The notes under the pieces are model-generated. The model was not told the DNA's origin. It saw nothing but the letters and a program-made list of their open reading frames with translations, and searched no databases. The position numbers and the translations under genes were made by a program. A DNA stretch of 64,000 nt. Origin: Candidatus Woesebacteria bacterium RBG_16_42_24 (GTDB lineage Bacteria; Patescibacteriota; Microgenomatia; UBA8517). Location of the stretch: NCBI GenBank assembly GCA_001792115.1, contig MGFX01000007.1:5265-69264 (forward strand), written 5' to 3'. Below are positions 20,619 to 40,418 of the stretch, piece by piece; position 1 is the stretch's first letter, and each line of letters starts with the position of its first letter.

Positions 20619-22388
20619 TTACAATATCACTTTCTCAAATTCTTTCAAGCTTAAGGTGTTAAGTACATCTTTTTTTGTCGCCCAGCCGCGTCTGGCAACG
20701 CTTACCCCAAACACCATGTTCTGCAAGCCGTCTTTATGGTGGGCGTCTGTTCCGAGGGTCAGCTTAACTCCCGTTTTCACGGCCTCCTTAACTAGAACGT
20801 CGGGTAAATCTAGCCTCATGGGGTCTGCATTTATTTCAAGAAATTTGTCATTTTTTACACAAAATTCAAAAATTTGGGGCCAGTCTAATTCAACGCCTTC
20901 CCTTTGAGTAAGTTTTCTAGCAGTCGGGTGAGCGAATATTTTTATTTTAGGATGGTCTAGGGCTAAAAGGACACGTTTTGTCATTTGAGCTCTATCAAGG
21001 TCGAAGGCTGAATGTATTGAGACTAAGGCAAAATCCAAATACTCAAGTCCCTTCTCGGGTATAGCAAGCTCACCAGTGGGAAGAATATCAATTTCTAAGC
21101 TATTGAACACTTTTTTTACGCTTCCTTCAGCTCTTTTCACGATTGAGGAATTAATTTTCTCAATAGCTTCAAGTTTACGCTTGAGTATATCTAAAGCTTC
21201 ACGCTCGCTGTGCTTACTTTTACTCGGATTGTGCTCTGTAAACGCGAGGTATTCATATCCCAATTTATCTGCTTCATCTACAATCTCTTGCATCGAAGAC
21301 TCTCCTATATCATGGCTTGTCTCTATGTCAAAATCGGAATGAATCTGTAAATCAGCCCTTATATCTTCCGTCTCGACTAAATTAGGAAGCTTATGCTTTA
21401 AGGCCGCCTCAATCTCTCCGGAATCTTCTCTAAGTTCGGGTGGAATTAAGTCCATACCCATACTTTTATAGAAGGCTTCTTCCGAAGGGTATTTGCTAAG
21501 CTTTCCATGCCTTTTTATTCCGTACTCTGACAGGCTCATTCCGTGCTTGATTGCGTATTCGCGCAATGCTATATTGTGGTGTTTTGAACCTGTAAAGTGT
21601 TGGAGTAGTGCTCCGTAAGCATTAGGAGGCTGGACCATCAAATCGACCTGGACGTCTCCTGGAAGCATTAAGGAGGCTGTGTGATCACCCTTTTCCAAAA
21701 CTCGCACCTTTTTAGGGTACAAGGTAAAGTGCTCTATAACCTCTTTGGCCTCATTTGAGGCTACGGCAATATCGATGTCTCCAACCGTCGCAGCCTGGCG
21801 CCTCAAGCTGCCTAGGGGATCAGCACGCTCTACATTCTTGTCTCTTAGCAGCCACTCAATGACTTCATTTGCATATAAAGCGGCATAAGGAAGCAGATGT
21901 CTTTTAGTTCTACCTTTTGTCTCCTCTATTGATTTTAAAATGTCAGCTTGCGATTGTTCACCAAATCCTTCTAGTCTGGCAATTTTACCGGCCTTGGCCC
22001 CCCTTTCAAGCTCAGCTAGGCTCTTTATCCCAATTTTTGTGACTAATTTGTAAGCCGTCTTAACTCCAATTCCAGGAATCTCCATGAGCTCAAACATACC
22101 TGCTGGAAGGCCTTTCATCACTTCTTCGAAGTGTTCAGAAGTTCCAATTCTAAAAAGCTCATCAAGGTGCGAGGCAATAGATTCGCCTATACCTGGTACG
22201 TCTTTGAGCTTTCCATCGTCCCAGAGGTCTTTAAGCTCGCTTGTAGAATGCTCAACAGCATCTGCCGCCCTCTGGTAAGCTATTATCCTAAACCTATTCT
22301 TTTCTTCGTCTTTGAGCTGATATGAAGCCGCAATTGCCCTCAAAAGCTCGGCAATCTCCAAATTGGACATATTTCTGTGAAGTCTCAT
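20619..22388 (-). CDS. Family X DNA polymerase with C-terminal PHP domain (PolX)
   Basis: N-terminal Pol-beta-like helix-hairpin-helix region (NRFRIIAYQRAADAV...VPGIGESIA) and C-terminal PHP motifs (HSDFDIETSHD...FTEHNPS). Confidence 0.8.
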   Translation of the reverse strand: MRLHRNMSNLEIAELLRAIAASYQLKDEEKNRFRIIAYQRAADAVEHSTSELKDLWDDGKLKDVPGIGESIASHLDELFRIGTSEHFEEVMKGLPAGMFELMEIPGIGVKTAYKLVTKIGIKSLAELERGAKAGKIARLEGFGEQSQADILKSIEETKGRTKRHLLPYAALYANEVIEWLLRDKNVERADPLGSLRRQAATVGDIDIAVASNEAKEVIEHFTLYPKKVRVLEKGDHTASLMLPGDVQVDLMVQPPNAYGALLQHFTGSKHHNIALREYAIKHGMSLSEYGIKRHGKLSKYPSEEAFYKSMGMDLIPPELREDSGEIEAALKHKLPNLVETEDIRADLQIHSDFDIETSHDIGESSMQEIVDEADKLGYEYLAFTEHNPSKSKHSEREALDILKRKLEAIEKINSSIVKRAEGSVKKVFNSLEIDILPTGELAIPEKGLEYLDFALVSIHSAFDLDRAQMTKRVLLALDHPKIKIFAHPTARKLTQREGVELDWPQIFEFCVKNDKFLEINADPMRLDLPDVLVKEAVKTGVKLTLGTDAHHKDGLQNMVFGVSVARRGWATKKDVLNTLSLKEFEKVIL

Positions 22389-22427
22389 TAAAACATTATA
22401 TAGCGAAGACTAAAGAGGAAAAACTAG

Positions 22428-22501
22428 CGAGGCTGAAGGGACTCGGACCCTCGACCTCTTGGTTGACAACCAAGCGCTCTAACCAACTGAGCTACAGCCC
22501 C
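22428..22501 (-). tRNA. tRNA-Asp (anticodon GTC)
   Basis: Minus-strand cloverleaf: acceptor GGGGCTG/CAGCCTC, anticodon stem CTTGG/CCAAG with loop TTGTCAA, T-loop TCCGAGT. Confidence 0.85.
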
Positions 22502-22555
22502 ATTCCGATGGAGATGCTATAGAAATTCCTATTTCTCTACAGCCCCATTCCGATG
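22492..22555. repeat. 19-bp direct repeat (ctacagccccattccgatg) spanning the tRNA-Asp 5' end and its leader
   Basis: Copies at 22492..22510 and 22537..22555. The first copy overlaps the first 9 nt of tRNA-Asp. Confidence 0.6.
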
Positions 22556-22593
22556 CTGAATTTTAGCACATTAGGAAAACAAACAAAATCCCC

Positions 22594-22628
22594 TTGACAT
22601 GAGCTACCTCATAGTTTAAATTCCAGAT
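22594..22628 (+). promoter_or_regulatory. Candidate sigma70-type promoter for the LysM gene (TTGACA, 17 nt spacer, TAAATT)
   Basis: Read directly: cccTTGACAtgagctacctcatagttTAAATTcc. It is followed by a ~100-nt leader with two hairpins (ccgac-caatt-gtcgg and cgctga-gct-tcagcg). Confidence 0.35.
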
Positions 22629-22732
22629 ACAAATTCTTCTGCCTTGCCTCGTCGCTCCGACCAATTGTCGGAGAAGGCGGGCCCTGCCTCTGAAATACTT
22701 GTCCGCTTTCGCTGAGCTTCAGCGAGATAAAG

Positions 22733-23299
22733 GTGGTGAGTAGATTGAACTTAAAATCAATTCTTAAAGCACTAAAATTAAACGAATCGACAATTAGTAT
22801 GGTTTTGGGAGCTTTGGTGATAGTGGTGGTCGGAGTTTTGGTAATCAACTACTTCAAGGGAAAAGAAACCGGCACTACTCTTCCTACAGGTGTAACAACG
22901 GAGAGAGAATCCCTATCGCTTCCGCGCACTCACACGGTAGTCGCTGGTGAAACCCTCTGGTCTATATCTGAGAGGTATTACGACTCTGGATATAATTGGG
23001 TTGATATTGCGAAGGAGAATGACCTCGCAAATGCTGGGCTCATTGAGGTGGGGCAAAAACTTTCAGTCCCGGATGTTCCCGCAAAGGCCGTAACTGTCTC
23101 GGAAGGTAAAGTAGTAAGCGAAACTTCCGGCAGTGCTATTTCTGGCTCAACTTACGAAGTCGTTAAAGGAGATTCTCTTTGGGACATTTCCGTTAGAGCA
23201 TATGGAGATGGATATCGCTGGGTAGAGGTTGCAAAGGAAAACAAATTAGCAAACCCTAATATCATCCACGCCGGAAACATTCTTATACTACCTAGGTAA
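22733..23299 (+). CDS. Membrane-anchored protein with two LysM peptidoglycan-binding domains
   Basis: GTG start after an AAAGG site; N-terminal TM helix; two LysM repeats (HTVVAGETLWSISERYY...VGQKLSVP and YEVVKGDSLWDISVRAYG...AGNILILP). Confidence 0.75.
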   Translation: MVSRLNLKSILKALKLNESTISMVLGALVIVVVGVLVINYFKGKETGTTLPTGVTTERESLSLPRTHTVVAGETLWSISERYYDSGYNWVDIAKENDLANAGLIEVGQKLSVPDVPAKAVTVSEGKVVSETSGSAISGSTYEVVKGDSLWDISVRAYGDGYRWVEVAKENKLANPNIIHAGNILILPR

Positions 23300-23334
23300 G
23301 AAATACTGGGAGTGATATAATTAATCCCATAAAA

Positions 23335-23405
23335 GCGGGATTAGTTGAGCGGCTCAATACTACCTTCCCAAGGTAGGGAGACGGGTTCGACTCCCGTATC
23401 CCGCT
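23335..23405 (+). tRNA. tRNA-Gly (anticodon CCC)
   Basis: Acceptor GCGGGAT/ATCCCGC, anticodon stem CTACC/GGTAG with loop TTCCCAA, T-arm ACGGG-TTCGACT-CCCGT. Confidence 0.8.
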
Positions 23406-23465
23406 CACAAGCGGAATCCGCAGCCGCGAGTTCGTGCGGGTTAGGGTTTGGGGGGAAGAGTAGGA

Positions 23466-24857
23466 CTAGAGCTTTGTAACTTGCCCCTCGATTGCATCAA
23501 CAAGTACTTTATCTCCATTCTTTAGTAGGAAAGTTGCATTGTTGGTTCCGACCACACAAGGAATTCCAAATTCTCTCGCAATAATTGCAGCGTGGGAAGT
23601 AATCCCACCAGAATCTGTAACAATTGCGGCGGCCTTAGTCATTGCAACAACATATGCTGGCTGGGTCTGAAATGCAACAAGTATTTCTCCCTTTTTAAAT
23701 TCTTTTAAGTCATCGTAGACTTTAATTATTCTTACTCTTCCCTCAACTTTTCCTCGACAAGCAGCAGTTCCTTTGATTTCTTGAGTTTTTGGTCGCTTAC
23801 GTTTTATTAATTTTTGGATTTTTTTAAATTGTTTTTGGTCTTTGAAGTAATAGAAATGAAGTTTGCCTTTCTCTGGCCAGACCAGCCTCAATTGGTTATT
23901 GTACCTTTCTTCATATTTCCTTATCTTTTTTGGGTTTTCGCTTACTTCAATGAGCTCTTCAAAAGTCAAGTTTTGGATAATTCCTTCGACATAGTACATA
24001 CCCATCTTTTTCTTAAGATAATTTTTAAATAGGAAATCAAGTTCGACTTGCTTGTCCGCGGCCCGATTATCGTACGAGTTAATCTTAACAAAAGTATTTA
24101 TTAGGTTTTTATCCTTGGCTGAAACTTTATCAATAAACATGAGTTCTTTATTTTGTTCTTTCTCCTTAACTAAGCCTTTTAGCTGATCTAGAAAGCTTTG
24201 TGGACCCCAGGGCTTGAGTCCTCTTTCGCTTGTGCTTATCCAGCCGTAATTTTCTGTGTGTCTTACCAATAATATTTTGATTTTTGGATCCAATTCTTCA
24301 AAGTTAAAATCAACTTTCTCAAACTCTTTTTGGAAATTTTTGTAAATTTCTAAAAGGTTATTATTGCTTTCCGTTAATTTAGTTTCTGAAGAATTTTTAA
24401 GAATGTAATTTATAATATCTGCTTCTGGAACTGATTCCTCTTTTGAAATTTCGGAAACCCCATGAGGGATAATCTCGTCAAATACCAGTGAAACAGAGCT
24501 CATAAGAAGAGATAAATTTTCCTGTATTTTAATGTACTTTTTAGAATCAAATTTTTGGTCATTAAGTTCAAAAATTAGTTTATCAGCAGATACACAGATA
24601 TCTTCAAAATCTTTTAAGAGTTTTTTAGTCTTTTGGCTGTCTTTGAAAAAATCTCTAAATCTTTCTAGGATCTCAGCTTCTTTATAAAAATCCAGGTACT
24701 CATCCCCGAAGACAGGCACCTTGTATCCTAGATAAATTGGATATTTGCCAAAAGACATTGTCTTGGCAAAAAGAAGGTGAATATACCAATCCCATTGCCA
24801 AACGCCTCCCCTGGTCCAATAGCCTTTTTTGACTTTTCTAATAAAACTTTCAAGCAC
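23466..24857 (-). CDS. Orphan PEP-utilizer swivel (phosphohistidine) domain protein with an uncharacterised lysine-rich N-terminal ~360 aa
   Basis: The C-terminal ~100 aa (RVRIIKVYDDLKEFKKGEILVAFQTQPAYVVAMTKAAAIVTDSGGITSHAAIIAREFGIPCVVG) matches the mobile His domain of PEP synthase and PPDK. No ATP-grasp GGKGANL motif and no PEP-binding TIM barrel. Markedly AT-rich. Confidence 0.55.
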   Translation of the reverse strand: MLESFIRKVKKGYWTRGGVWQWDWYIHLLFAKTMSFGKYPIYLGYKVPVFGDEYLDFYKEAEILERFRDFFKDSQKTKKLLKDFEDICVSADKLIFELNDQKFDSKKYIKIQENLSLLMSSVSLVFDEIIPHGVSEISKEESVPEADIINYILKNSSETKLTESNNNLLEIYKNFQKEFEKVDFNFEELDPKIKILLVRHTENYGWISTSERGLKPWGPQSFLDQLKGLVKEKEQNKELMFIDKVSAKDKNLINTFVKINSYDNRAADKQVELDFLFKNYLKKKMGMYYVEGIIQNLTFEELIEVSENPKKIRKYEERYNNQLRLVWPEKGKLHFYYFKDQKQFKKIQKLIKRKRPKTQEIKGTAACRGKVEGRVRIIKVYDDLKEFKKGEILVAFQTQPAYVVAMTKAAAIVTDSGGITSHAAIIAREFGIPCVVGTNNATFLLKNGDKVLVDAIEGQVTKL

Positions 24858-24909
24858 AGTATGATTATACAGTGAGAATGTGGAATTTGGGTGGAGTTTA
24901 GCCTCTAAA

Positions 24910-25119
24910 GGGAGTAAAATGTGTCTTTAATTGTCCGCGCACGGGTTGGGCTTGCCCTAAAAATTGCGCATTCAATTTTCAGGGTGAAGGGCAAGGACAA
25001 TTTGTTCCTGTCTTAACGCGCGCAAAAAATAGCGGAGGCGAGGCTGTTAGGCCGAGCCGGAGCTGCGACAATTAGGGTGTGCGACAAAAGTTAGTTCGAG
25101 CTTTTTCAAAAACGAGCTC
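24910..25119. repeat. Intergenic repeat element, copy 1 (~210 bp)
   Basis: Near-identical blocks shared with 29666..29929: gggagt...cgcacggg, gaagggcaa.gacaatttgttcctgtcttaacgcgcgc, caaaaaat, agcggaggcgaggc, ggccgagccgg, ttcgaRctttttcaaaaacgagctc. Ends 5 nt before the GTG start of the 25125 gene. Confidence 0.7.
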
Positions 25120-25124
25120 CATAA

Positions 25125-25847
25125 GTGACAAAAATAAACATTAATGACAAAAAAGTTACAATAATGGATAATGGTTTTATGAATAAATACGTGGTGTTGC
25201 TTCGTAGTAACATATTTAAAATCACGACGCTTGTTTTGTTTCTGATTGTTCTTGTTGTCAGCTTTGTTAACATCAGCTTCCAGCAAAAACTTAAGGATAC
25301 AACCCAAAAATTGGCATTTAAAAGCGAGGAATATGAGCTGTGCATAGATGACAAAGCAAAAATAATAGAAGAATCTAAGCAAACTTATTCTCCTCAGGAA
25401 TTTAAGATTTCTTCTCCTTTGTTTGAAGGAAAAGAAATGACCGTAAAAATGTTGGGTTATAAAGGCACTGAGATAAAAGAGATGACAATTGATCTTCCGC
25501 AAAGTGATCAGCTGGGTCATCCGATTAATATTAAAGTCTGGGATTATATTAACGTTCCTAATCCAAAAATGGCAAGATTCGACCAGTATTACAATGCCTT
25601 TCCACTTTGGGCAGAAACAGTAAATGATAATCTGACAAATTATTTTACATATAAGACGACTAGTGGATTTTCTATGAATCGCGCTTGTGGAGAATTAACC
25701 ATTTCGAGAAGCATCACCAGCATTCACAGCATTTATGTATTGATATCAGGCTATCAATGTACTGGAATATTTCCAGGAAAAGAGGAAGAAACAATCAGGG
25801 AGTCAACAAAGTTTCTAGAGGAAGTAGCAGACACTATTAATTTTTAG
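25125..25847 (+). CDS. Hypothetical membrane-anchored protein
   Basis: 240 aa; TM helix at ~30-50 then a soluble domain without recognisable motifs. Very AT-rich. GTG start with no obvious RBS. The antisense ORFs in this region look like low-complexity artefacts. Confidence 0.4.
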   Translation: MTKININDKKVTIMDNGFMNKYVVLLRSNIFKITTLVLFLIVLVVSFVNISFQQKLKDTTQKLAFKSEEYELCIDDKAKIIEESKQTYSPQEFKISSPLFEGKEMTVKMLGYKGTEIKEMTIDLPQSDQLGHPINIKVWDYINVPNPKMARFDQYYNAFPLWAETVNDNLTNYFTYKTTSGFSMNRACGELTISRSITSIHSIYVLISGYQCTGIFPGKEEETIRESTKFLEEVADTINF

Positions 25848-25942
25848 CTTTACTCTAGCGTGGCAAAATCATCAACACCTAAGAGTTCTTTCAAGGCCAA
25901 AAGCTGAACACCCAACTCTGGTGTGATATACTTTGATAGGCT

Positions 25943-25966
25943 TGTCCTGAGTGAAATCGAAGGGTT
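25943..25966. repeat. Short repeat fragment (gtcctgagtgaaatcgaagggtt) related to motifs inside repeat copy 2
   Basis: Matches the inverted copy ccttcgatttcactcagga at 29794..29812 and the direct copy gtcctgagcgaagtcgagggg at ~29874..29894. Confidence 0.5.
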
Positions 25967-26022
25967 CGAGCCCAGTACGGTATCCAGCTCAAAACGTGAG
26001 TGTACGTGCGTAAACCAGGATT

Positions 26023-26793
26023 ATGCAGATAGATTTCTTCGAGGAGTTCCCCAACGATGATAGTTTATCTAAGTTGCGCATTATTAAATTTCGAACAAAT
26101 CTCTATGTCGCTGCTAAAAGTGTAAAAGAATTCTTAGTTTTAAAAACTAAAATTAAGAAGTTTTATAGAAATGTAGCCGAGGTAATTTACTGGCCTATTC
26201 TAGAGGTGAATGAAGGTTATTGGCTATCAGCATTCTCCAAAACATTGGCAATTAAGCGAATTCTAAACGAGCTTAAAAATACAAACGAGAAGTTCTCAGT
26301 ACTTTGGGATGCAGAACTGCCAATATTAGCTAAAGAACTTTTCGTGACTCAATTACCAAATTTCTTAAGAAATCGGAAAATTATAAAAAAAGTAACATTG
26401 CATCAAGACTCAAATCATCCTCTTATAATAACGGCATTTCCCAAAAGCGGAATAAATAAATTCTTCTCGAGTCTGGCGTGCACTTATTTTTCTTCTGGAA
26501 GTTTTCCCTATATCGATATGCTCTATACCTCTTTACTGAGGGTAAAAGATAAGTCTAGGTATGTACGTAGTGCCATAAAAAGAAATAAAAATAAATTTCA
26601 GGAATACTCTGTTGCACTTGGACTTATTGGGCGAGGGGTAGAAGATTACTCAACACCACTAATTTCTCCTCTTGGCTTAAAAATGGATTTAGGTATCGCA
26701 CAGAAAGAAGGGGTAAAAAATGTAGTACTTTATCGCCTAGGAGGCTTAAATAAAAATTATCTCGGAGTGCTTGAGGAATTTGTCAGTAAATAG
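26023..26793 (+). CDS. Hypothetical protein
   Basis: 256 aa, AT-rich, no recognisable motif. Confidence 0.4.
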   Translation: MQIDFFEEFPNDDSLSKLRIIKFRTNLYVAAKSVKEFLVLKTKIKKFYRNVAEVIYWPILEVNEGYWLSAFSKTLAIKRILNELKNTNEKFSVLWDAELPILAKELFVTQLPNFLRNRKIIKKVTLHQDSNHPLIITAFPKSGINKFFSSLACTYFSSGSFPYIDMLYTSLLRVKDKSRYVRSAIKRNKNKFQEYSVALGLIGRGVEDYSTPLISPLGLKMDLGIAQKEGVKNVVLYRLGGLNKNYLGVLEEFVSK

Positions 26794-26909
26794 CCCACAA
26801 AAAGTGTTAATTTATTAAGTTGTACTTTATTATGTATTTTTTAGTTCTAAAGCATAAACTAAATCAGGTAATAGGCCGTCTTGATAGAATAATCTGATAA
26901 AATCTAACT

Positions 26910-27386
26910 ATGATTAAAGATTTGAACAAACTAGCCAGGAAAATTATTCAGGAAAACCAATATGTAACAATTGCCACATCAGACAAAAATGGCAATCCTT
27001 GGATTTCTGCAGTGGTTTATGCATATGACAAAGACTGGAATTTTTATTTCATTTCAATCCCTTCATCTAAACACTGCCAGAACATAAAAAATAATAAAAG
27101 GGTTGTGGTTGCAATTTTCGATTCACATCAGCTTTTGGGTGAAGGAGTCGGTTTACAAATAGAGGGTGAAGCGATTATGGTGGATATTAAAGACACGCCT
27201 AAAGTAGCTACAATTTATTTTGGAAGAAAATACCCATATGGCAAGGTGGCGCATAATGCCGGTCAGTATATCAAAAGATTTATGAAGAAAGGAGAACTAT
27301 ACAGATTTTATAAAATTCGACAGACAACGTTTTGGATGAACGACCCAAATAGCAAAATTGATTTAAGAGTTGAAGTAAAATTATGA
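26910..27386 (+). CDS. Pyridoxamine 5'-phosphate oxidase-like FMN-binding split-barrel protein
   Basis: YVTIATSDKNGNPWISAVVY...NKRVVVAIFDSHQ pattern typical of the PNPOx/general-stress-protein-26 family. Paralogous to the 28102..28578 product. Confidence 0.55.
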   Translation: MIKDLNKLARKIIQENQYVTIATSDKNGNPWISAVVYAYDKDWNFYFISIPSSKHCQNIKNNKRVVVAIFDSHQLLGEGVGLQIEGEAIMVDIKDTPKVATIYFGRKYPYGKVAHNAGQYIKRFMKKGELYRFYKIRQTTFWMNDPNSKIDLRVEVKL

Positions 27387-28105
27387 ATATGGATTTTCAG
27401 AATAAAGTAGCAGTTATCACAGGAGCAAGTAGAGGACTTGGCAAAGAAATTGCGATACTTTTGGCTGAGCAAAAAGCCAAACTTGCACTGGTTTCCCGAT
27501 CAGAAAATGAGCTAAATAAAGTCAAAGAAGAAATTGGCCCCAATGCGGAATATTTTGTCTGCGATATTTCAAACTCAAAAGCAGTTGAGAAAACCATCGT
27601 TGAGATTCATCAAAAGTTCGGCAAAATAGACATTCTCATCAATAATGCCGGTATTTGGTTTGAGGGGCTAGCAGAAAAACACCCTCCAGAAAAGGTTAAA
27701 GAATTATTCGACGTAATCACGTTGGGAACTATTTATGTAACAACAAGCGTGCTACCAATTCTCAAAAAACAGGCTGAAGGGCAAATATTAAATGTCGTTT
27801 CTGTCGCAGGGATAGAAACTCCCGGAGCTGAAATGGGTCCTTACTCGCCGTATACTGCCGCAAAATATGCTGTAACCGGGTTCACGAAATCATTAGAGGA
27901 AGAACTCAAAGGGACAAAAATAAAAGTAATGGGAATTTATCCAGGCGGAATGAATACACCTCTATTCAAGAAAGCTGGTTTTGATTATACAGAAAACGAA
28001 AATTGGATGATGGATAAGAAAGATGTCGCCAAAATTATTTTATTCATGCTCTCACAACCAAAAGACGTAATTATTGACCACTTAGTTGTAAGAAAATTTA
28101 GTTAA
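27383..28105 (+). CDS. Short-chain dehydrogenase/reductase (SDR)
   Basis: TGASRGLG cofactor-binding motif, NNAG, and a YxxxK active-site region (YTAAKYAV). Confidence 0.8.
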   Translation: MNMDFQNKVAVITGASRGLGKEIAILLAEQKAKLALVSRSENELNKVKEEIGPNAEYFVCDISNSKAVEKTIVEIHQKFGKIDILINNAGIWFEGLAEKHPPEKVKELFDVITLGTIYVTTSVLPILKKQAEGQILNVVSVAGIETPGAEMGPYSPYTAAKYAVTGFTKSLEEELKGTKIKVMGIYPGGMNTPLFKKAGFDYTENENWMMDKKDVAKIILFMLSQPKDVIIDHLVVRKFS

Positions 28106-28578
28106 GCCTTCCAAATTCCGTATTCTTCAGGTGAATAAAGTTCTTTGTTGAAAAACTTTAAATACTTTGGGGTAATCTTCCAAACGTTAGTGTCAGCAAA
28201 TTTTATAACCTCCTTTATCGTTATCTCCTTTTCTACTCCAGGGTTTTGCTTATGCCAAAGTGCTAATGCCTTAGTTAGATTGATAATTCCTTTAACCTTC
28301 TCGATTGTGCCGGATCCTTGGAGCCCCTTCTTGGGTTCAAAAATCTTTTGGTGAGAATCGAAAATATTAAATGCGATTTTGTTGTTCTTAGTCATATCTT
28401 TGCCGTGAATTGAGTTCGGGTCGGTAACAATGTACAGATTCATATCTTTGTCAATTCCATAATAAACAGTGCAAACCCAAGGGCCTTTTGAGGATTGAGT
28501 AGCCAACGTCATGATTCCCTTCTTTTTAAGAAACTTGAAAATATCTTGCCCGATTAGAACGTTTGTTCTTTTACCCAT
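28102..28578 (-). CDS. Pyridoxamine 5'-phosphate oxidase-like FMN-binding protein (paralog of the 26910..27386 gene)
   Basis: IMTLATQSSKGPWVCTVYYGIDKDMNLYIVTDPNSIHGKDMTKNNKIAFNIFDSHQ aligns with the 26910 product. Start placed at the internal Met to avoid a 90-nt overlap with the pyrD-like gene. Confidence 0.5.
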   Translation of the reverse strand: MGKRTNVLIGQDIFKFLKKKGIMTLATQSSKGPWVCTVYYGIDKDMNLYIVTDPNSIHGKDMTKNNKIAFNIFDSHQKIFEPKKGLQGSGTIEKVKGIINLTKALALWHKQNPGVEKEITIKEVIKFADTNVWKITPKYLKFFNKELYSPEEYGIWKA

Positions 28579-28599
28579 CAAGGCTATAATATCACTGGA

Positions 28600-29664
28600 G
28601 TGAATAAATTCAAAATTGAACACTGGGTCTATAAAAATATTCTCAGGCCATATTTGTTTGCTATTGATTCCGAAAAAATCCACGACCAAATGATTAGGTT
28701 TGGGGAACTCACGGAAAATGCAGGCTGGTTTTTAGAAGCCCAATACTCATATAAAAGCGATAGGTTAAAAAGGTCGTTTTTAGATGTAGATTTTGAGAAT
28801 CCAGTGGGGCTTGCTGCCGGGTTTGACTACGATGGACATTTAGCCAAAACAATGAAACATCTCGGGTTTGGATTTAATACCATTGGCACAGTTACGGCTA
28901 AGCCTTACGGAGGTAACCAGAAGCCTAGGTTGCTAAGACTTGTGAAGTCTCGAGCGATTCTTGTAAACAAAGGCTTCAAGTCAGAAGGTGCGACCAAAGT
29001 GGCAAAAAGGCTAGACGCAAAAAATCTTCAAGGACACACTGTCGGAATCAGTGTCGGAAGCTCAAACATTCCAGAAGTGAACACAATTGACAAAGCGATC
29101 AATGACTATGTCTTTACTTTCAATGTTTTTAAAAACAAGCCTTACGTTAAATATTTTGAACTTAATATCAGTTGTCCTAACACAGCGATGACTGAGTCAT
29201 TTACTACACCACAAAATTTTGAAAAGTTGGTATCCGCCGTAAGTAAGCTGAATTTGAAGCAACCAATCTTTGTGAAAATGCCAAACGAAATAGTCAGTAA
29301 AGAAGCAGAAAGCTTAGTAAGAATTGGTTTGAGGTATAGAATAAATGGCTATATTTTCTCTAACCTTGTTAAGGATCGGGGAAATAAATACTTTGTAAAA
29401 AGCGAGATCGAAAAGATGGAAGGCTACAAAGGTAATTTTAGCGGGAAACCCTGCACGGAGAACTCTAACAAACTTCTGGCGCATGTTAAGACAAAGTTCG
29501 GTAATAAGGTTGTCCTGATTGGCCTTGGCGGAATTTTCAATGCGAAAGACGCAATCCAGATGTTTGAAAGTGGGGCCGATTTAGTACAACTTATAACAGG
29601 AATGATTTTTGAAGGACCTCAAATAGCAGGAGAGATAAATTATCAACTTTCTATTGGTAAGTAG
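28600..29664 (+). CDS. pyrD: Dihydroorotate dehydrogenase-like, class 2 (quinone-type) architecture
   Basis: N-terminal extension YKNILRPYLFAIDSEKIHD, ENPVGLAAGFDYDG, GFGFNTIGTVTAKPYGGNQKPRL, NISCPNT, and C-terminal LGGIFNAKDA...GADLVQLITGMIFEGPQI all match class-2 PyrD blocks. Confidence 0.7.
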   Translation: MNKFKIEHWVYKNILRPYLFAIDSEKIHDQMIRFGELTENAGWFLEAQYSYKSDRLKRSFLDVDFENPVGLAAGFDYDGHLAKTMKHLGFGFNTIGTVTAKPYGGNQKPRLLRLVKSRAILVNKGFKSEGATKVAKRLDAKNLQGHTVGISVGSSNIPEVNTIDKAINDYVFTFNVFKNKPYVKYFELNISCPNTAMTESFTTPQNFEKLVSAVSKLNLKQPIFVKMPNEIVSKEAESLVRIGLRYRINGYIFSNLVKDRGNKYFVKSEIEKMEGYKGNFSGKPCTENSNKLLAHVKTKFGNKVVLIGLGGIFNAKDAIQMFESGADLVQLITGMIFEGPQIAGEINYQLSIGK

Positions 29665-29665
29665 A

Positions 29666-29929
29666 GGGAGTGTGTTTAATATATTTTACGTTGGCACGCA
29701 CGGGCAGGGCTTGCACTAAAAAATTTCCGGAGGAATTTTTCAGCGTGAAGGGCAAAGACAATTTGTTCCTGTCTTAACGCGCGCGCAAAAAATCCTTCGA
29801 TTTCACTCAGGATAAATAGCGGAGGCGAGGCCACATTCGGCTTAGCTCAGTGTAAACTTGGCCGAGCCGGCGAAGTCCTGAGCGAAGTCGAGGGGAGCGA
29901 AGCGGTTCGAACTTTTTCAAAAACGAGCT
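29666..29929. repeat. Intergenic repeat element, copy 2 (~265 bp; carries extra internal segments relative to copy 1)
   Basis: Shares the blocks listed for copy 1. It also carries an internal imperfect inverted pair (ccttcgatttcactcagga ... tcctgagcgaagtcgagg) separated by ~60 nt. Confidence 0.7.
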
Positions 29930-29958
29930 CAAGTTATTAGTTGTGCTAAGCTAGGATT

Positions 29959-30678
29959 ATGAAGTTTAAGCTTGTTGATAAGAAGGCAGAGGCGAAGGGG
30001 ACGAAGTCTTTCTTTTGGGAACCTGACAAAAGGTTTGAATTCTTACCCGGACAGTATCTTTATTACACTCTTCCAAAGCTTGAGTTTCCGGATCCAAGAG
30101 GCGCTACGCGGCACTTTACTATTTCAGCCTCACCTACGGAATCTCCCCCCGTCAGGTTGACTACTAGGATTCGTGAGGAGTCTGGTTACAAAAAAACTTT
30201 AGATTCGCTACCAATTGGCAGTTTTGTTGAAGCAGAAGGCCCTGACGGAACTTTTATTTTAGATACTGGCGATGCGGGACCCCATATCTTTATTGCGGGA
30301 GGAATCGGCATTACTCCTTTCAGAAGCATGATTAAGTTTGTCCTTGACAAAAATCTGGGTTACGAGATGCATTTAATTTATTCAAACTCTCTTCCCGAGG
30401 AAATTGCTTTTAGAGAAGAGTTTGACCATTACGCTGACCTTATTCCCAATTTTAAGATTACCTCAACTGTGACTAAGAAAGACGAAATAAAAACGCCCTG
30501 GGTTGGACTGACCGGGAGAATTGATGTCAACTTAATTTCGAAGGTTGCAAGCTCTTACCAAAATCCCACATTTTGGGTTTGCGGTCCACCTCCGATGGTC
30601 GATGCGATAGAGAAAGCTCTTTCCGAGCTCAAAATCTCTTCGAGCCAAATAAGGACAGAAAAATTCACGGGTTATTAG
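29959..30678 (+). CDS. FAD/NAD(P)-binding ferredoxin-NADP reductase-like oxidoreductase
   Basis: RHFTIS (RxYS flavin motif), GGIGITPF, and a C-terminal VCGPPPM NAD-binding motif. No Cys cluster for a 2Fe-2S centre. Confidence 0.7.
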   Translation: MKFKLVDKKAEAKGTKSFFWEPDKRFEFLPGQYLYYTLPKLEFPDPRGATRHFTISASPTESPPVRLTTRIREESGYKKTLDSLPIGSFVEAEGPDGTFILDTGDAGPHIFIAGGIGITPFRSMIKFVLDKNLGYEMHLIYSNSLPEEIAFREEFDHYADLIPNFKITSTVTKKDEIKTPWVGLTGRIDVNLISKVASSYQNPTFWVCGPPPMVDAIEKALSELKISSSQIRTEKFTGY

Positions 30679-30716
30679 CTTCAGATGTCTTCGCAATGAT
30701 ATAATTCCAATTGATC

Positions 30717-30788
30717 GCCGATGTAGCTCAATGGCAGAGCAGTCCCTTCGTAAGGGAAAGGTTAGGGGTTCAAGTCCTCTCATCGGCT
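30717..30788 (+). tRNA. tRNA-Thr (anticodon CGT)
   Basis: Acceptor GCCGATG/CATCGGC, D-arm GCTC-AATGGCA-GAGC, anticodon loop TTCGTAA, T-arm AGGGG-TTCAAGT-CCTCT. Confidence 0.85.
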
Positions 30789-30794
30789 CCCTAA

Positions 30795-31510
30795 ATATGA
30801 GAAATTATTCCAGACTTGTGAGATTCGAGGAAAGGAGAAACCTAAGAAGTGCGGTACTATTGGGACTGTTAACTTTGGGGCTCATTCTATTTTTTATATT
30901 TTTTGGCCTACCTCTCATGGCTAAATTTGCGGGGTTCTTGGCAGATTTGAGAAAAACATCTACACCTGTCGAGAGTGCCGACACAACTCCTCCTGCACCC
31001 CCAAGACTTGATACACTGCCAGAGGCTACAAATAAGCTAAGTATAAATATAACTGGGTCGACCGAACCTGGTGCCACAGTTATTCTTAGTTTAAATACTA
31101 AAGAGGAAGAGATTCTAGCCAACTCCGAAGGCGAATTTACCTTTAATTTTGAACTACTTAATGGAGAAAACTCCATCTTGGCGAAGGCACGAGACGACGC
31201 CGGCAACGAAAGTCAAAAGACCCAAACAGTCAAAATTATTTTCGACGATGAAGCTCCAAGTTTAGAAATCACCGCTCCTCCCGATGGAGCTTCTTTTTTC
31301 GGCTCAAAGCAAAGGCAAATAGTCGTTGAAGGGAAGACCGAAGAAGGAACCTCCCTTACTATAAATGACCGTTTTGTTTTGGTTGAAAACGACGGAACGT
31401 TCGCCTTTACAACCACTCTCGGAGAGGGAGAAAATTCTTTCAATCTTAAGGCTAAAGACAAGGCTGAAAATTTAACTGAAAAAACTATTAAAGTATCCTT
31501 TACTCCTTAA
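30795..31510 (+). CDS. Membrane-anchored surface protein with two Ig-like (BIG-type) repeats
   Basis: Start moved downstream of the tRNA (MRNYSRL...). TM helix, then two ~70-aa repeats (GATVILSLN...NSILAKARDDAGNES and GTSLTINDRF...NSFNLKAKDKAENLTE). Confidence 0.5.
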
Positions 31511-36333: not shown

Positions 36334-36990
36334 CTAAACGTATTCTTTCTTGGGAAGAAAATATTTTCTATAAAGTCGTCTTAAAATTGTCAAGCCTACT
36401 ATTAAAACAGCAAACCAATAAAACCACGAAAAGGGGGGCGTCCAGGCATCTGTTCCAGTGAAATAGGCGTGGACTGCGACGAAAAGGAATGCAACATAAT
36501 TGAGGATGTGCAAACTCCTCCACTTTTCTCTAAAAAAGGGTTTTGTTCGAAAATAACCAGCGGCAACTCCGACAGTAAGAAGTAAAAAAGCGAATCTGCC
36601 AAAGCTTATCCAAAGCTCTCTTCCTGTCAGTGACATCGGGAAAATTGTAAATAAAGGATTAAAAATGCCCAAATTAAAGTAGTTGAAAAGTGTATAGAGC
36701 ATTGGGTGGATAAGAATTAATCCGTATATAAAAAGCCCTTGGGTCGTATGAAACTTAAAGACCCAACCCCCTAATTTTTCTGTTAATAAAGTCATATATG
36801 AGCCCAGTATTATTTGCCAAAACAAGAGTATAAATGCGGCTAATCCCGTTAGTCTTTGGAAAAAGTTGGTAATTAAAGTTGGGTTATCGATGGAACCGGG
36901 AGGGGTAAGACTAAGGATTGTCAAAGGGGCAATTAGAAGTGTCACAAACCAGAGAAACAAAAAGAGGGGCTTTCCAACACCGATACTCAT
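36334..36990 (-). CDS. Ferric-reductase-like / YedZ(MsrQ)-like haem-binding membrane protein (tentative)
   Basis: ~6 TM helices with paired conserved His residues in TM helices (HTTQG...LILIHP and HILNY...FVAVHAY), the pattern of bis-haem ferric reductase domains. Confidence 0.35.
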   Translation of the reverse strand: MSIGVGKPLFLFLWFVTLLIAPLTILSLTPPGSIDNPTLITNFFQRLTGLAAFILLFWQIILGSYMTLLTEKLGGWVFKFHTTQGLFIYGLILIHPMLYTLFNYFNLGIFNPLFTIFPMSLTGRELWISFGRFAFLLLTVGVAAGYFRTKPFFREKWRSLHILNYVAFLFVAVHAYFTGTDAWTPPFSWFYWFAVLIVGLTILRRLYRKYFLPKKEYV

Positions 36991-39242: not shown

Positions 39243-40259
39243 ATGTCTCGCAAATGGAGGGTCCTGTTCGTGCTGGGAATCCTGGCGGTACTTACTGCCG
39301 GATGCGGAGCCTCTGCTCAACCGCAAGCCCAGCCGCCTGTGCAGGTGGAGGTTATCGTTGTCTACCCTACTCCGATGCCTACCCAGATTCCTGCACCAAC
39401 AGCCGTACCGTTGAAGCTCGATGACACCCCTCGTATCGCCCTGATTTCTGCCTTTGACGGCGAACTCTACGCTTTCAGGGACGAGGGCAACATCGAGGAA
39501 ACCCTAGTCGTCGACGGCCGAACCGTGTACATGGGAACGCTTGCTGGGCACGACGTTCTCATGACGATCAGTGGGGTTTCGATGGTCAACGCAACGCAGG
39601 CGGTGACCACGCTGATCGAGCGGTTCAACATCACACACATCGTGTTTTCGGGTATAGCGGGCGGCGTCAACCCGGATCTTCGAATCGGCGACGTGGCTGT
39701 GCCTGCGAGGTGGGCTGAGTACCAAGAGAACTACTTCGCCCGAGAGACGTCCGGCGGCTTCGCTCCCCCGCCCTGGGTCACGCCGATAGCACCCAACTTC
39801 GGGATGATGTTTCCCAGCTGTCCCGATGTCGTTCTGCCAGGGTCTCCGCCCGACCTCGAGACTACGATGTGCTGGTGGAACGCCGACCCAACCATGCTCC
39901 AAGTCGCCCAACAGGTGGCCACCAGCATCGAGCTCGAACGGTGTGTCGATGCAGACCACTGTCTCAGTGAAACGCCGGTCGTCAGGGTCGGTGGAAACGG
40001 CGTAGCCGGGCCCACTTTCGTGGACAATGCGGAATACCGAAGCTATGTCTGGGACGTCTGGCGGGCTGACTCCCTGGACATGGAAAGCTCAGCCGTTGCC
40101 CACGTGGCTACCGACAAGCATGTTCCGTTCATCATCTTCCGGAGCCTCTCCGATCTTGCCGGAGGCGGCCCAGGAGAGAACGAGATCGGGACATTCTTCG
40201 GCATCGCGGCCACCAACAGCGCCAGGGTCATGCTCGCCTTCCTGGAAGCCTGGCCGTAA
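39243..40259 (+). CDS. Lipoprotein of the PNP/UDP phosphorylase family-1 (MTA/SAH nucleosidase-like), strongly GC-rich
   Basis: Lipobox LTAGC after a signal peptide; GHDVLMTISG, FSGIAGGV and DMESSAVAHVA match family-1 nucleoside phosphorylase/nucleosidase motifs. GGAGG RBS 7 nt upstream. 60-nt spot counts give ~63% GC, against ~35-45% for neighbouring genes. Confidence 0.65.
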   Translation: MSRKWRVLFVLGILAVLTAGCGASAQPQAQPPVQVEVIVVYPTPMPTQIPAPTAVPLKLDDTPRIALISAFDGELYAFRDEGNIEETLVVDGRTVYMGTLAGHDVLMTISGVSMVNATQAVTTLIERFNITHIVFSGIAGGVNPDLRIGDVAVPARWAEYQENYFARETSGGFAPPPWVTPIAPNFGMMFPSCPDVVLPGSPPDLETTMCWWNADPTMLQVAQQVATSIELERCVDADHCLSETPVVRVGGNGVAGPTFVDNAEYRSYVWDVWRADSLDMESSAVAHVATDKHVPFIIFRSLSDLAGGGPGENEIGTFFGIAATNSARVMLAFLEAWP

Positions 40260-40346
40260 GCACCGTACGGGGAAAGAAATTTAAGTCCCCAAAGGGGGGG
40301 TCGAAGTGGACAATCGTCCATCAGGCCCCCTCTGGTACTTTAAAAG

Positions 40347-40418
40347 TGGTCGCTGCAGGGATCGAACCTGCGACCTCTTCGATGTGAACGAAGCGCTCTA
40401 CCACTGAGCCAAGCGACC
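40347..40418 (-). tRNA. tRNA-Val (anticodon CAC)
   Basis: Minus strand: acceptor GGTCGCT/AGCGACC, anticodon stem CTTCG/CGAAG with loop TTCACAT, T-arm GCAGG-TTCGATC-CCTGC. Confidence 0.85.

Follow-up and report, generated by a model that had tools for sequence, protein, structure and literature searches.

A genomic island without a recombinase at the 3' end of a Woesebacteria tRNA-Gly gene, a probable derivative of large serine recombinase elements

How did the AT-rich DNA between two tRNA genes of Candidatus Woesebacteria bacterium RBG_16_42_24 come to be there, and where does it end? The window analysed here is a 64-kb stretch of contig MGFX01000007.1 in which tRNA-Gly(CCC) (23335-23406) and tRNA-Thr(CGT) (30717-30790), both on the + strand, enclose 23407-30716. 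An earlier note on this DNA had described the enclosed segment as AT-rich, free of housekeeping genes, framed by the two tRNAs and a candidate integrated or exchangeable island. We think it likely that 23407-29958, from the 3' end of tRNA-Gly(CCC) to the gene of an FNR-like flavin reductase, is a recently exchanged genomic island that lacks a recombinase, occupies a hypervariable slot and derives from elements mobilized by large serine recombinases (LSRs).

ARAGORN and Rfam both placed the tRNA genes where the earlier note had them, and the AT-richness held on computation. The GC content of 23407-30716 was 37.7% versus 42.4% for the remaining window, the third lowest value among 567 sliding 7.3-kb windows (the minimum being 37.6% at 23600). 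Tetranucleotide distance to the window average, taken in 5-kb windows, peaked at 24001-29000 (z = 3.3, the top of the window); the compositional background is thus 64 kb of genome. Gene by gene, GC was 34.6% for a phosphoenolpyruvate (PEP)-utilizer protein, 34.0 and 34.5% for two proteins without a family (unk1 and unk2), 34.2 and 36.1% for two PNPOx-like flavoproteins (PNPOx1 and PNPOx2), 37.8% for an SDR oxidoreductase and 38.6% for a class-2 dihydroorotate dehydrogenase (DHODH) gene, pyrD. Three intergenic stretches of the segment reached 46-48%.

The right-hand frame did not survive comparison with relatives. A scan of a genome collection with the neighbouring protein PolX gave Candidatus Woesebacteria relatives; for this exact locus three to four relatives were informative. 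The alignments of L007 and L004 with the window end exactly at the 3' end of tRNA-Gly and restart at the FNR start codon or 17 nt ahead of it. Hence, the variable segment runs from 23407, the first base past tRNA-Gly(CCC), to ~29958, and FNR and tRNA-Thr are conserved backbone. The island is ~6.5 kb long and ends on the right at 29931-29958, immediately before the FNR-like gene begins. That gene (29959-30678, + strand; FAD_binding_6 and NAD_binding_1 in Pfam), which had been counted as part of the accessory segment, is a core gene and not cargo: its GC content (43.1%) is core-like and it adjoins tRNA-Thr in L007, L004, L009 and at least seven metagenome loci. The proximal anchor of the variable region is tRNA-Gly(CCC), the 3' end of which is also the junction with recombinase-bearing islands in relatives. 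tRNA-Thr belongs to the conserved core and marks no island boundary.

The same slot is empty or differently filled in the relatives. In the closest one found (L007; PolX 82%, flanking proteins 65-88% amino-acid identity) the island is absent, tRNA-Gly being followed by 285 nt, FNR, tRNA-Thr, a Big-domain protein and Wzy. L004 (PolX 74%) has an unrelated 649-aa surface protein ahead of FNR and a 161-aa open reading frame (ORF) between FNR and tRNA-Thr. L009, which is Woesebacteria GWA1_41_8 and was found via its 90%-identical PEP-utilizer homolog, carries ~11 kb ahead of FNR: seven small uncharacterized genes, the PEP-utilizer gene, unk2, PNPOx1, an SDR that is different and oppositely oriented, PNPOx2, pyrD, an RHH/PIN pair and a 73-aa ORF. 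Three metagenome contigs (L039, L018 and L035) have the same LysM-tRNA-Gly(ccc) locus, each with different cargo. In L039 seven other genes precede an island end composed of a copy of a repeated element (described below), an 81-aa ORF and FNR, and L018 has genes of 1000, 400 and 596 aa, which, judged by size alone, may be a type I restriction-modification system. In L035 DUF5677 and DUF3800 proteins are followed by a PNPOx1-SDR-PNPOx2-pyrD module as in L009, with the other SDR. Defence-like cargo in these relatives thus comprises the type I-sized genes (by size only), DUF3800 and RHH/PIN. In a further locus the slot upstream of FNR holds a 341-aa ORF (L044:663-1688), the N-terminus of which resembles by eye a retron- or group-II-type reverse transcriptase.

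The shared cargo is far more alike than the genomes that carry it. Between the window and L009, flanking core nucleotides are 65-69% identical and core proteins 70% (PolX), 72% (LysM), 63% (FNR), 63% (Big), 48% (Wzy) and 47% (GT2), whereas three island blocks are 89.0, 89.9 and 94.8% identical in nucleotides and the island proteins 90% (PEP-utilizer), 88% (unk2), 89% (PNPOx1), 94% (PNPOx2) and 94% (pyrD). The intergenic DNA within the island is also ~89% identical. The blocks end 41 nt past the tRNA and 40 nt past pyrD, and are broken by an insertion carrying unk1 and by a swap of the SDR gene. L035 gave the same picture, with PNPOx1, PNPOx2 and pyrD 88-94% identical to those of the window and LysM 68.5%. 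Given an island at 88-94% and core proteins that range overall from 47 to 80% against L009 or L035, the comparison indicates that the cargo was recently exchanged between Woesebacteria, in discordance with the core genome. The suggestion of an integrated or exchangeable island beside a tRNA gene is therefore borne out by composition, absence from L007, differing cargo and discordant identities.

What the window lacks, its relatives have. In L039, L018 and L035 an LSR of 517-565 aa with Resolvase, Recombinase and Zn_ribbon_recom domains adjoins the 3' end of the same tRNA-Gly on the opposite strand, which points to the tRNA-Gly/FNR slot as a recombinase-served integration hot spot. Nine loci have an LSR abutting a tRNA gene, and the layout is the same in 9/9: tRNA(+)|R, LSR(-), R'|element(-), cargo and element(+), where R and R' are inverted repeats that bracket the LSR gene. 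The tRNAs concerned are Gly-ccc, Gly-tcc, Pro-tgg, Pro-cgg, Trp and Leu-tag; L033 and L086 share their recombinase-to-element sequence with L021 and were not counted separately (by ARAGORN the L033 tRNA is Pro-ggg). R and R' are 105-137 nt long and 83-95% identical in eight of the nine loci, the exception being L018, where R is 45 nt and 80% identical and the shared part starts a few nt past GCTC. Likewise in 8/9 loci, each R copy starts with the last 4 nt common to the tRNA and the element, these being GCTC, CGAC, TTGC or GCAC. A full element in the relatives reads, from the tRNA 3' end, R, the LSR gene on the opposite strand, inverted R' (its leader), an inward-facing element copy, cargo and an outward-facing element copy against the host gene.

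The recombinase genes overlap the tRNA gene beside them. The LSR ORFs at L039:9055-10608, L018:1186-2883 and L035:5395-6951 and at six further loci extend through R into the tRNA antisense, such that the last ~20 codons (for example ...ERDRGVEPLFLPWEGSVEPLN) are the reverse complement of the tRNA. R' is the 5' leader of the LSR gene and at the same time an inverted copy of the DNA at that gene's own 3' end.

The second component of these loci, the repeated element, is present twice in the window. The earlier note had seen two copies of a ~210-265 bp repeat, and these proved to be 24907-25120 (copy A) and 29667-29930 (copy B), both on the + strand, with common blocks 85-96% identical and extra inserts in B. 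Such blocks are not expected by chance (0 in 100 shuffles) and occur nowhere else in the 64 kb. In copy A an imperfect palindrome, AGCGGAGGCGAGGC..GGCCGAGCCGG, occupies 25031-25060 and a 3' arm, GTTCGAGCTTTTTCAAAAACGAGCTC, 25094-25119; in copy B the palindrome lies at 29818-29870 and the 3' arm at 29905-29930, which leaves 28 nt to the start codon of FNR. The two copies have a private 3'-arm variant in common. Copy B has in addition a 28-nt insert (ACATTCGGCTTAGCTCAGTGTAAACTT-like) at the palindrome centre (29832-29859), as have L034, L053, L069 and L077; this would be the loop position if the palindrome forms a hairpin.

Rather than a local duplication, the repeat is a member of a widespread element family tied to LSRs. 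Its core, AGCGGAGGCGAGGC, then 4-5 or 28 nt, then GGCCGAGCCGG, is present in 85 groundwater metagenome stretches, and a profile search gave 127 element copies in 86 loci. The whole element, ~110-260 nt, consists of a variable 5' part, a 33-35-nt imperfect palindrome (AGC GGA GGC GA GGCC / GGCC GA GCC GGA GCT) and a 3' arm with GTTCRA, which ends 2-100 nt ahead of diverse start codons. An LSR is carried by 24 of the 86 loci, and upstream of 19 of the 23 LSR genes with enough upstream sequence an element copy on the same strand ends 136-190 nt away. The element is absent from L007 and L004, which are empty of the island, and in the window it occurs inside the island only. In at least seven other Woesebacteria loci it stands upstream of the FNR-tRNA-Thr-Big-Wzy backbone, directly beside FNR in L044, L047 and L090 and with one small ORF between in the others. 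What lies behind the junction of pyrD and the element differs among four genomes: FNR, RHH-PIN, a 222-aa gene or another ORF. An element copy of L072 (6652-6763) directly abuts, with 0 nt between, the 5' end of a tRNA-Pro(tgg) gene in the same orientation, and in the element 3' flanks of L072/L014 another copy precedes tRNA-Gly(tcc) by 160 nt; hence, the element can precede tRNA genes as well as protein genes.

The hairpin persists in a few diverged copies, in which the inner stem differs but is fully complementary or the G.A pairs give way to Watson-Crick pairs, and so the palindrome may plausibly act as a hairpin, a cruciform or a symmetric site for a protein. Rfam found only tRNAs at gathering score on the whole window and nothing relevant at E up to 5 on 22300-31000. 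We do not claim a structured RNA: RNAalifold on 62 and on 81 copies returned only the palindrome by which the copies had been selected, with 0 compensatory pairs, shuffled sequences fold as well as the stretch that follows the palindrome (mean z = 0.03) and single-copy folds gave z = -1.25 and -2.56. A sigma-70 promoter is speculation only. Some copies elsewhere have, by eye, TGGTATAAT upstream and a TTGAAG/TATGTT-like pair in the 3' arm; a consensus scan gave no promoter-like site in either window copy and no enrichment over shuffles. Crossover at the palindrome centre, as "half elements" upstream of recombinases might have implied, was rejected: those copies have complete but diverged palindromes.

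A smaller motif accompanies the element. The 21-nt GTCCTGAGYGAARTCGARGGG occurs at 25944-25964 (+), 29793-29813 (-) and 29875-29895 (+), the last two being an inverted pair inside copy B. A ~21-24-nt form, GTCCYGAGCGAAGTCGARGGR, is also found in L008:2313-2336, L026, L034, L053, L077, L092, L095 and L096 and looks like an insertion, as in some element copies it directly follows the palindrome. In another metagenome-assembled genome (MAG) the motif lies in frame within an HtpX (Peptidase_M48) ORF, where it encodes ...YPERSRRS....

Of this architecture the window has the tRNA, 39 nt of an R-like stub, cargo and a pair of element copies that both face outward, but no LSR, no R' and no inward-facing copy. 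The stub, GCTCACAAGCGGAATCCGCAGCCGCGAGTTCGTGCGGG, at 23403-23441 (+), resembles the first ~39 nt of R after tRNA and element 3' ends, and its local alignment scores of 33-40 against L093, L044, L047 and the solo R of L009 were reached by 0/300 shuffles. The support it gives is modest. It is probably the leftover of a lost recombinase module, or else a native attB arm. A full-length R copy is found at L044:290-420. The two junctions of the window, tRNA|R-like (23403-23441) and element-3'-end|host (29930/29931), appear to be of the same types as those of LSR-bearing loci. With the LSR, R' and the inward copy lost or never received, the island would be a non-autonomous derivative that is probably decaying.

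The most parsimonious history of the slot would comprise four steps: (i) LSR elements would integrate at the tRNA 3' end, attL being tRNA|R and attR the element 3' arm joined to host DNA; (ii) the recombinase modules would decay; (iii) cargo would be left behind; and (iv) the conserved element cores could serve as portable homology for further cassette swapping. The last step would fit the pyrD|element junction with its four different followers and the private 3'-arm variant common to copies A and B. In step (i) the element 3' arm may act as an LSR half-site that mimics the tRNA 3' end, and an LSR encoded elsewhere might move the island in trans. The PEP-utilizer gene, unk2, PNPOx1, PNPOx2 and the class-2 DHODH gene would have moved recently between Woesebacteria lineages or come from a common donor, with insertion of unk1 and the SDR swap as later remodelling.

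Several observations weigh against this reconstruction. No recombinase domain was found in the island ORFs with Pfam, and tblastn of three LSRs against the 64-kb window detected neither an LSR gene nor a pseudogene. (An apparent 26-aa LSR match proved to be the antisense of the tRNA, not a recombinase remnant.) The search for integrase remnants proposed in the earlier note was thus negative in the whole window. That for att-like tRNA duplicates divided: the window has no exact copy of at least 12 nt of tRNA-Gly or tRNA-Thr except the Thr D-arm versus tRNA-Met, and in L009 the solo R inside the island is preceded by a degenerate tRNA-Gly 3' fragment, GCGGTTCAAAT...CCCGCTC. No direct repeats flank the island. 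An R profile (nhmmer) gave no match in the window, stub included, and so short a stub could just as well be a native attB arm; the tRNA-adjacent site would then be unoccupied, with the cargo beyond it. The att roles of the junctions are ones that we infer from sequence. Past the last 4 nt, the tRNA and element arms share only the GTTCRA motif at -19 to -23; a similarity specific to cognate arms was considered and dropped, as beyond those 4 nt cognate and non-cognate pairs cannot be told apart by global alignment score. Lastly, the informative relatives for this exact locus are few, the conservation of the element core is partly by construction, as the metagenome loci were picked by an exact 25-nt core pattern, and with 63 unique sequences among the 91 core matches some loci are one organism sampled repeatedly.

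A bolder version, which we hold only tentatively, is that the loci represent an undescribed integrative family of Candidate Phyla Radiation (CPR; Microgenomates) bacteria, in which the LSR targets extreme tRNA 3' ends (Gly, Pro, Trp and Leu), the element is the terminal module and LSR-less islands are satellites moved in trans. Recombinase-less islands would keep both junctions, and a cognate recombinase would move them. If true, this would account for near-identical metabolic cargo, DHODH included, across core genomes ~65-70% identical. Another proposal, that R-LSR-R' alone is the mobile unit, is disfavoured: it needs an empty site with tRNA and element tail to tail, and the 121 element hits contain none.

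Could the island have moved without any recombinase? It may be a replacement island exchanged by homologous recombination in its flanks (tRNA-Gly and FNR) and in the element core, the recombinases of the relatives being mere co-residents. The window does lack a recombinase and att repeats, the high-identity region shared with L009 is a mosaic of three blocks, pyrD|element is joined to four different downstream genes, and the 3'-arm variant private to both copies suggests recombination or gene conversion within the element. However, flanks 65-69% identical to those of L009 are a poor substrate, the identity blocks stop 41 nt past the tRNA and 40 nt past pyrD and not within core genes, and the strict tRNA|R-LSR-R'|element geometry in 9/9 loci points to a site-specific origin of the slot. 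We therefore regard homologous recombination as a rather doubtful full account, partly compatible with derivation from LSR elements as a second route of movement.

Vertical inheritance of an ancestral segment, lost from L007 and L004 and AT-rich through local mutational bias or low expression, is very improbable. Class-2 DHODH and the PNPOx-pyrD pair are common in CPR bacteria, where they lie among housekeeping genes elsewhere, and homologs of the PEP-utilizer protein, ~460 aa long, occur widely among CPR and DPANN. Differential loss nevertheless cannot explain an island at 88-94% when PolX, LysM, FNR, Big and Wzy of the same genome pair are at 47-72% and the closer relative is empty; the intergenic DNA of the island is itself ~89% identical, and the identity falls to 58% for another Woesebacteria pyrD. 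That the segment is what remains of a prophage or phage satellite, as a tRNA-adjacent, AT-rich location and two proteins of no known function might suggest, is hardly credible: PHROGs gave the island proteins only generic kinase, FabG-like, DHODH-like and ferredoxin-reductase-like matches and no phage structural, replication or lysis proteins, PADLOC gave 0 matches to known defence systems for 8 segment proteins, and the element core has 0 exact matches in viral contigs. An assembly or binning artefact, a foreign piece joined at repeats or tRNAs (classic chimera points) in a MAG, is next to impossible, since the locus stands on four independent contigs: the pyrD protein is identical in two groundwater MAGs, on NCBI contigs of GCA_001793175.1 and GCA_001792155.1, over 14 kb surrounding the island one assembly agrees with the window at 100% and a second, from a different sample, at 99.97-100%, the sole differences between the two source assemblies being scaffold N-gaps, and the same module in the LysM-tRNA-Gly to FNR locus recurs on the independent contigs of L009 (plus JGI copies) and L035.

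Which known system do these loci resemble? LSR mobile elements include serine-integrase phages, SCCmec with Ccr, Tn4451 with TnpX and Tn5397 with TndX; crossover is at a dinucleotide, so that no long direct repeats arise. The loci studied here share the Resolvase/Recombinase/Zn_ribbon_recom architecture, a recombinase at one end and ends that are inverted repeats. Serine integrases usually target ORFs, not tRNA genes, whereas the targets here would be tRNA 3' termini of at least four amino-acid specificities. The inverted repeats are also of unusual length and serve at the same time as the LSR 5' leader, an accessory element with a 33-35-nt imperfect palindrome is present, and the window lacks the enzyme. 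Like classical tRNA islands with a tyrosine integrase, the window island starts directly past a tRNA 3' end and shows shifted composition, variable presence, unrelated cargo and incongruent signal, but it has no integrase, its relatives have LSRs and not tyrosine integrases at this site, and no long tRNA-derived direct repeat is seen, the last 4 nt of the tRNA alone being common to the element end. An imperfect-palindrome element at module junctions and varied genes behind the same junction recall integron cassette arrays. Unlike those arrays, these loci gave no IntI-type tyrosine recombinase, their multi-gene modules lie on both strands, and the element stands 5' of the following gene, not at a cassette 3' end, and has no R'/R'' attC consensus.

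The nearest analogy in behaviour may be the tRNA-seeded islands of Prochlorococcus that are shaped by tycheposons, 474/501 of which carry a tRNA-associated tyrosine recombinase and partial-tRNA flanks (bioRxiv 10.1101/2020.12.28.424599). Those islands are likewise tRNA-seeded, with integration at the tRNA-proximal end, are mostly element-free with remnants and left-behind cargo, show the greatest strain heterogeneity beside the tRNA and carry metabolic genes (bioRxiv 10.1101/2020.12.28.424599). Here, in contrast, the LSR is bracketed by 105-137-nt inverted repeats and a 110-260-nt element takes the place of a partial tRNA at the distal end; the window and the relatives inspected have no tyrosine recombinase, replication module (primase/helicase) or partial-tRNA flanks. 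By analogy, the resemblance is one of island dynamics only.

CPR (Patescibacteria) genomes are tiny and, to our knowledge, little has been written on gene exchange among them. The literature searched gave no account of LSR/tRNA islands, recombinase-driven islands or this element in CPR bacteria. The locus is a concrete case of a tRNA-seeded hot spot in Woesebacteria at which metabolic genes, a class-2 DHODH included, are exchangeable cargo. If the att assignment is true, these serine recombinases would have predictable target sites at tRNA ends and the element would be a marker for flexible islands in CPR metagenomes. For the window itself the upshot is more modest, namely that the segment is best regarded as accessory DNA acquired horizontally and that FNR and tRNA-Thr belong to the core. 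The chief interest lies in the previously unannotated element and in the LSR architecture of the relatives.

Given these borders we turn to the cargo, the genes of which were assigned with Pfam and NCBIfam. The gene list of the earlier note stood: a protein with a PEP-utilizers domain only, two family-less proteins, two PNPOx_N proteins, an SDR, a class-2 DHODH and a reductase. The cargo is metabolic or without family, its function being set at family level only. The first gene (23466-24857, - strand) encodes a 463-aa protein, 90% identical to its L009 ortholog, with only a C-terminal PEP-utilizers (phosphohistidine swivel) domain; its N-terminal ~340 aa match no family, and the ATP-grasp and PEP-binding domains found in PEP synthase and in rifampicin phosphotransferase are missing from it. 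Some homologs, of 701 aa, are fusions with PPDK_N. An absent ATP-grasp half encoded by unk1 or unk2 was considered and rejected, as neither protein resembles the N-terminus of those fused homologs.

unk1 (25179-25847, +) encodes 222 aa, or 240 aa if the GTG at 25125 is the start; the protein, which has no family, is predicted to be anchored in the membrane by its N-terminus. The gene is not in L009, where 33 nt stand in place of window 25084-25984, that is, the last ~37 nt of element copy A, unk1 and most of the unk1-unk2 spacer. unk2 (26023-26793, +; 256 aa, 88% identical to the L009 ortholog) has no family and no relative in the PDB. PNPOx1 (26910-27386, +; 158 aa, PNPOx_N) is 89% identical to its L009 and L035 orthologs and is followed by the SDR oxidoreductase (27383-28105, +; 240 aa, Pfam/NCBIfam). 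At the position of the latter, L009 (7651-8379) and L035 (1978-2706) have a different SDR, 33-34% identical and on the opposite strand. This is an in-situ non-orthologous replacement between two conserved PNPOx genes, within a module otherwise 89-95% identical.

PNPOx2 (28102-28623, -; 173 aa, PNPOx_N, YhbP-like) diverges from pyrD (28600-29664, +; 354 aa), and both are 94% identical to their L009 and L035 orthologs. The pyrD product is a class-2 (quinone-type) DHODH: it matches NF003652 of NCBIfam with 285 bits (cutoff 267) and aligns over its full length with solved class-2 enzymes. The nearest other CPR homologs are 57-75% identical, with another Woesebacteria pyrD at 58%. A divergent PNPOx2-pyrD pair is also found at L100:4395-5991 in a core context (ThrRS ... 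IF3-L20-PheRS), a recurrence that suggests a functional flavoprotein partnership, and a class-2 pyrD lies among GreA-AspRS and Lon at L098:6760-7821. DHODH is core in some CPR lineages and island cargo in this one. The view that the segment holds no housekeeping genes is therefore debatable: pyrD encodes a pyrimidine-synthesis enzyme and stands among translation genes in other CPR genomes.

Two observations outside the island are of a different kind. A 218-aa membrane protein (36334-36990, -), conserved in L007 too, has a weak match to Ferric_reduct (transmembrane haem; 27 bits versus a cutoff of 28) and lies 6 kb from the FNR-like gene 29959-30678; the two might together make up a split ferric-reductase or NOX-like pair. 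Another compositional outlier, this one GC-rich, is found at 38-43 kb and especially at 39243-40259, with up to 56% GC and a tetranucleotide z of 3.0; Rfam found no rRNA in this stretch. Positions 39243-40259 encode a 338-aa PNP_UDP_1 nucleoside phosphorylase directly upstream of tRNA-Val(cac) (40346-40418), and this may be another acquired gene next to a tRNA.

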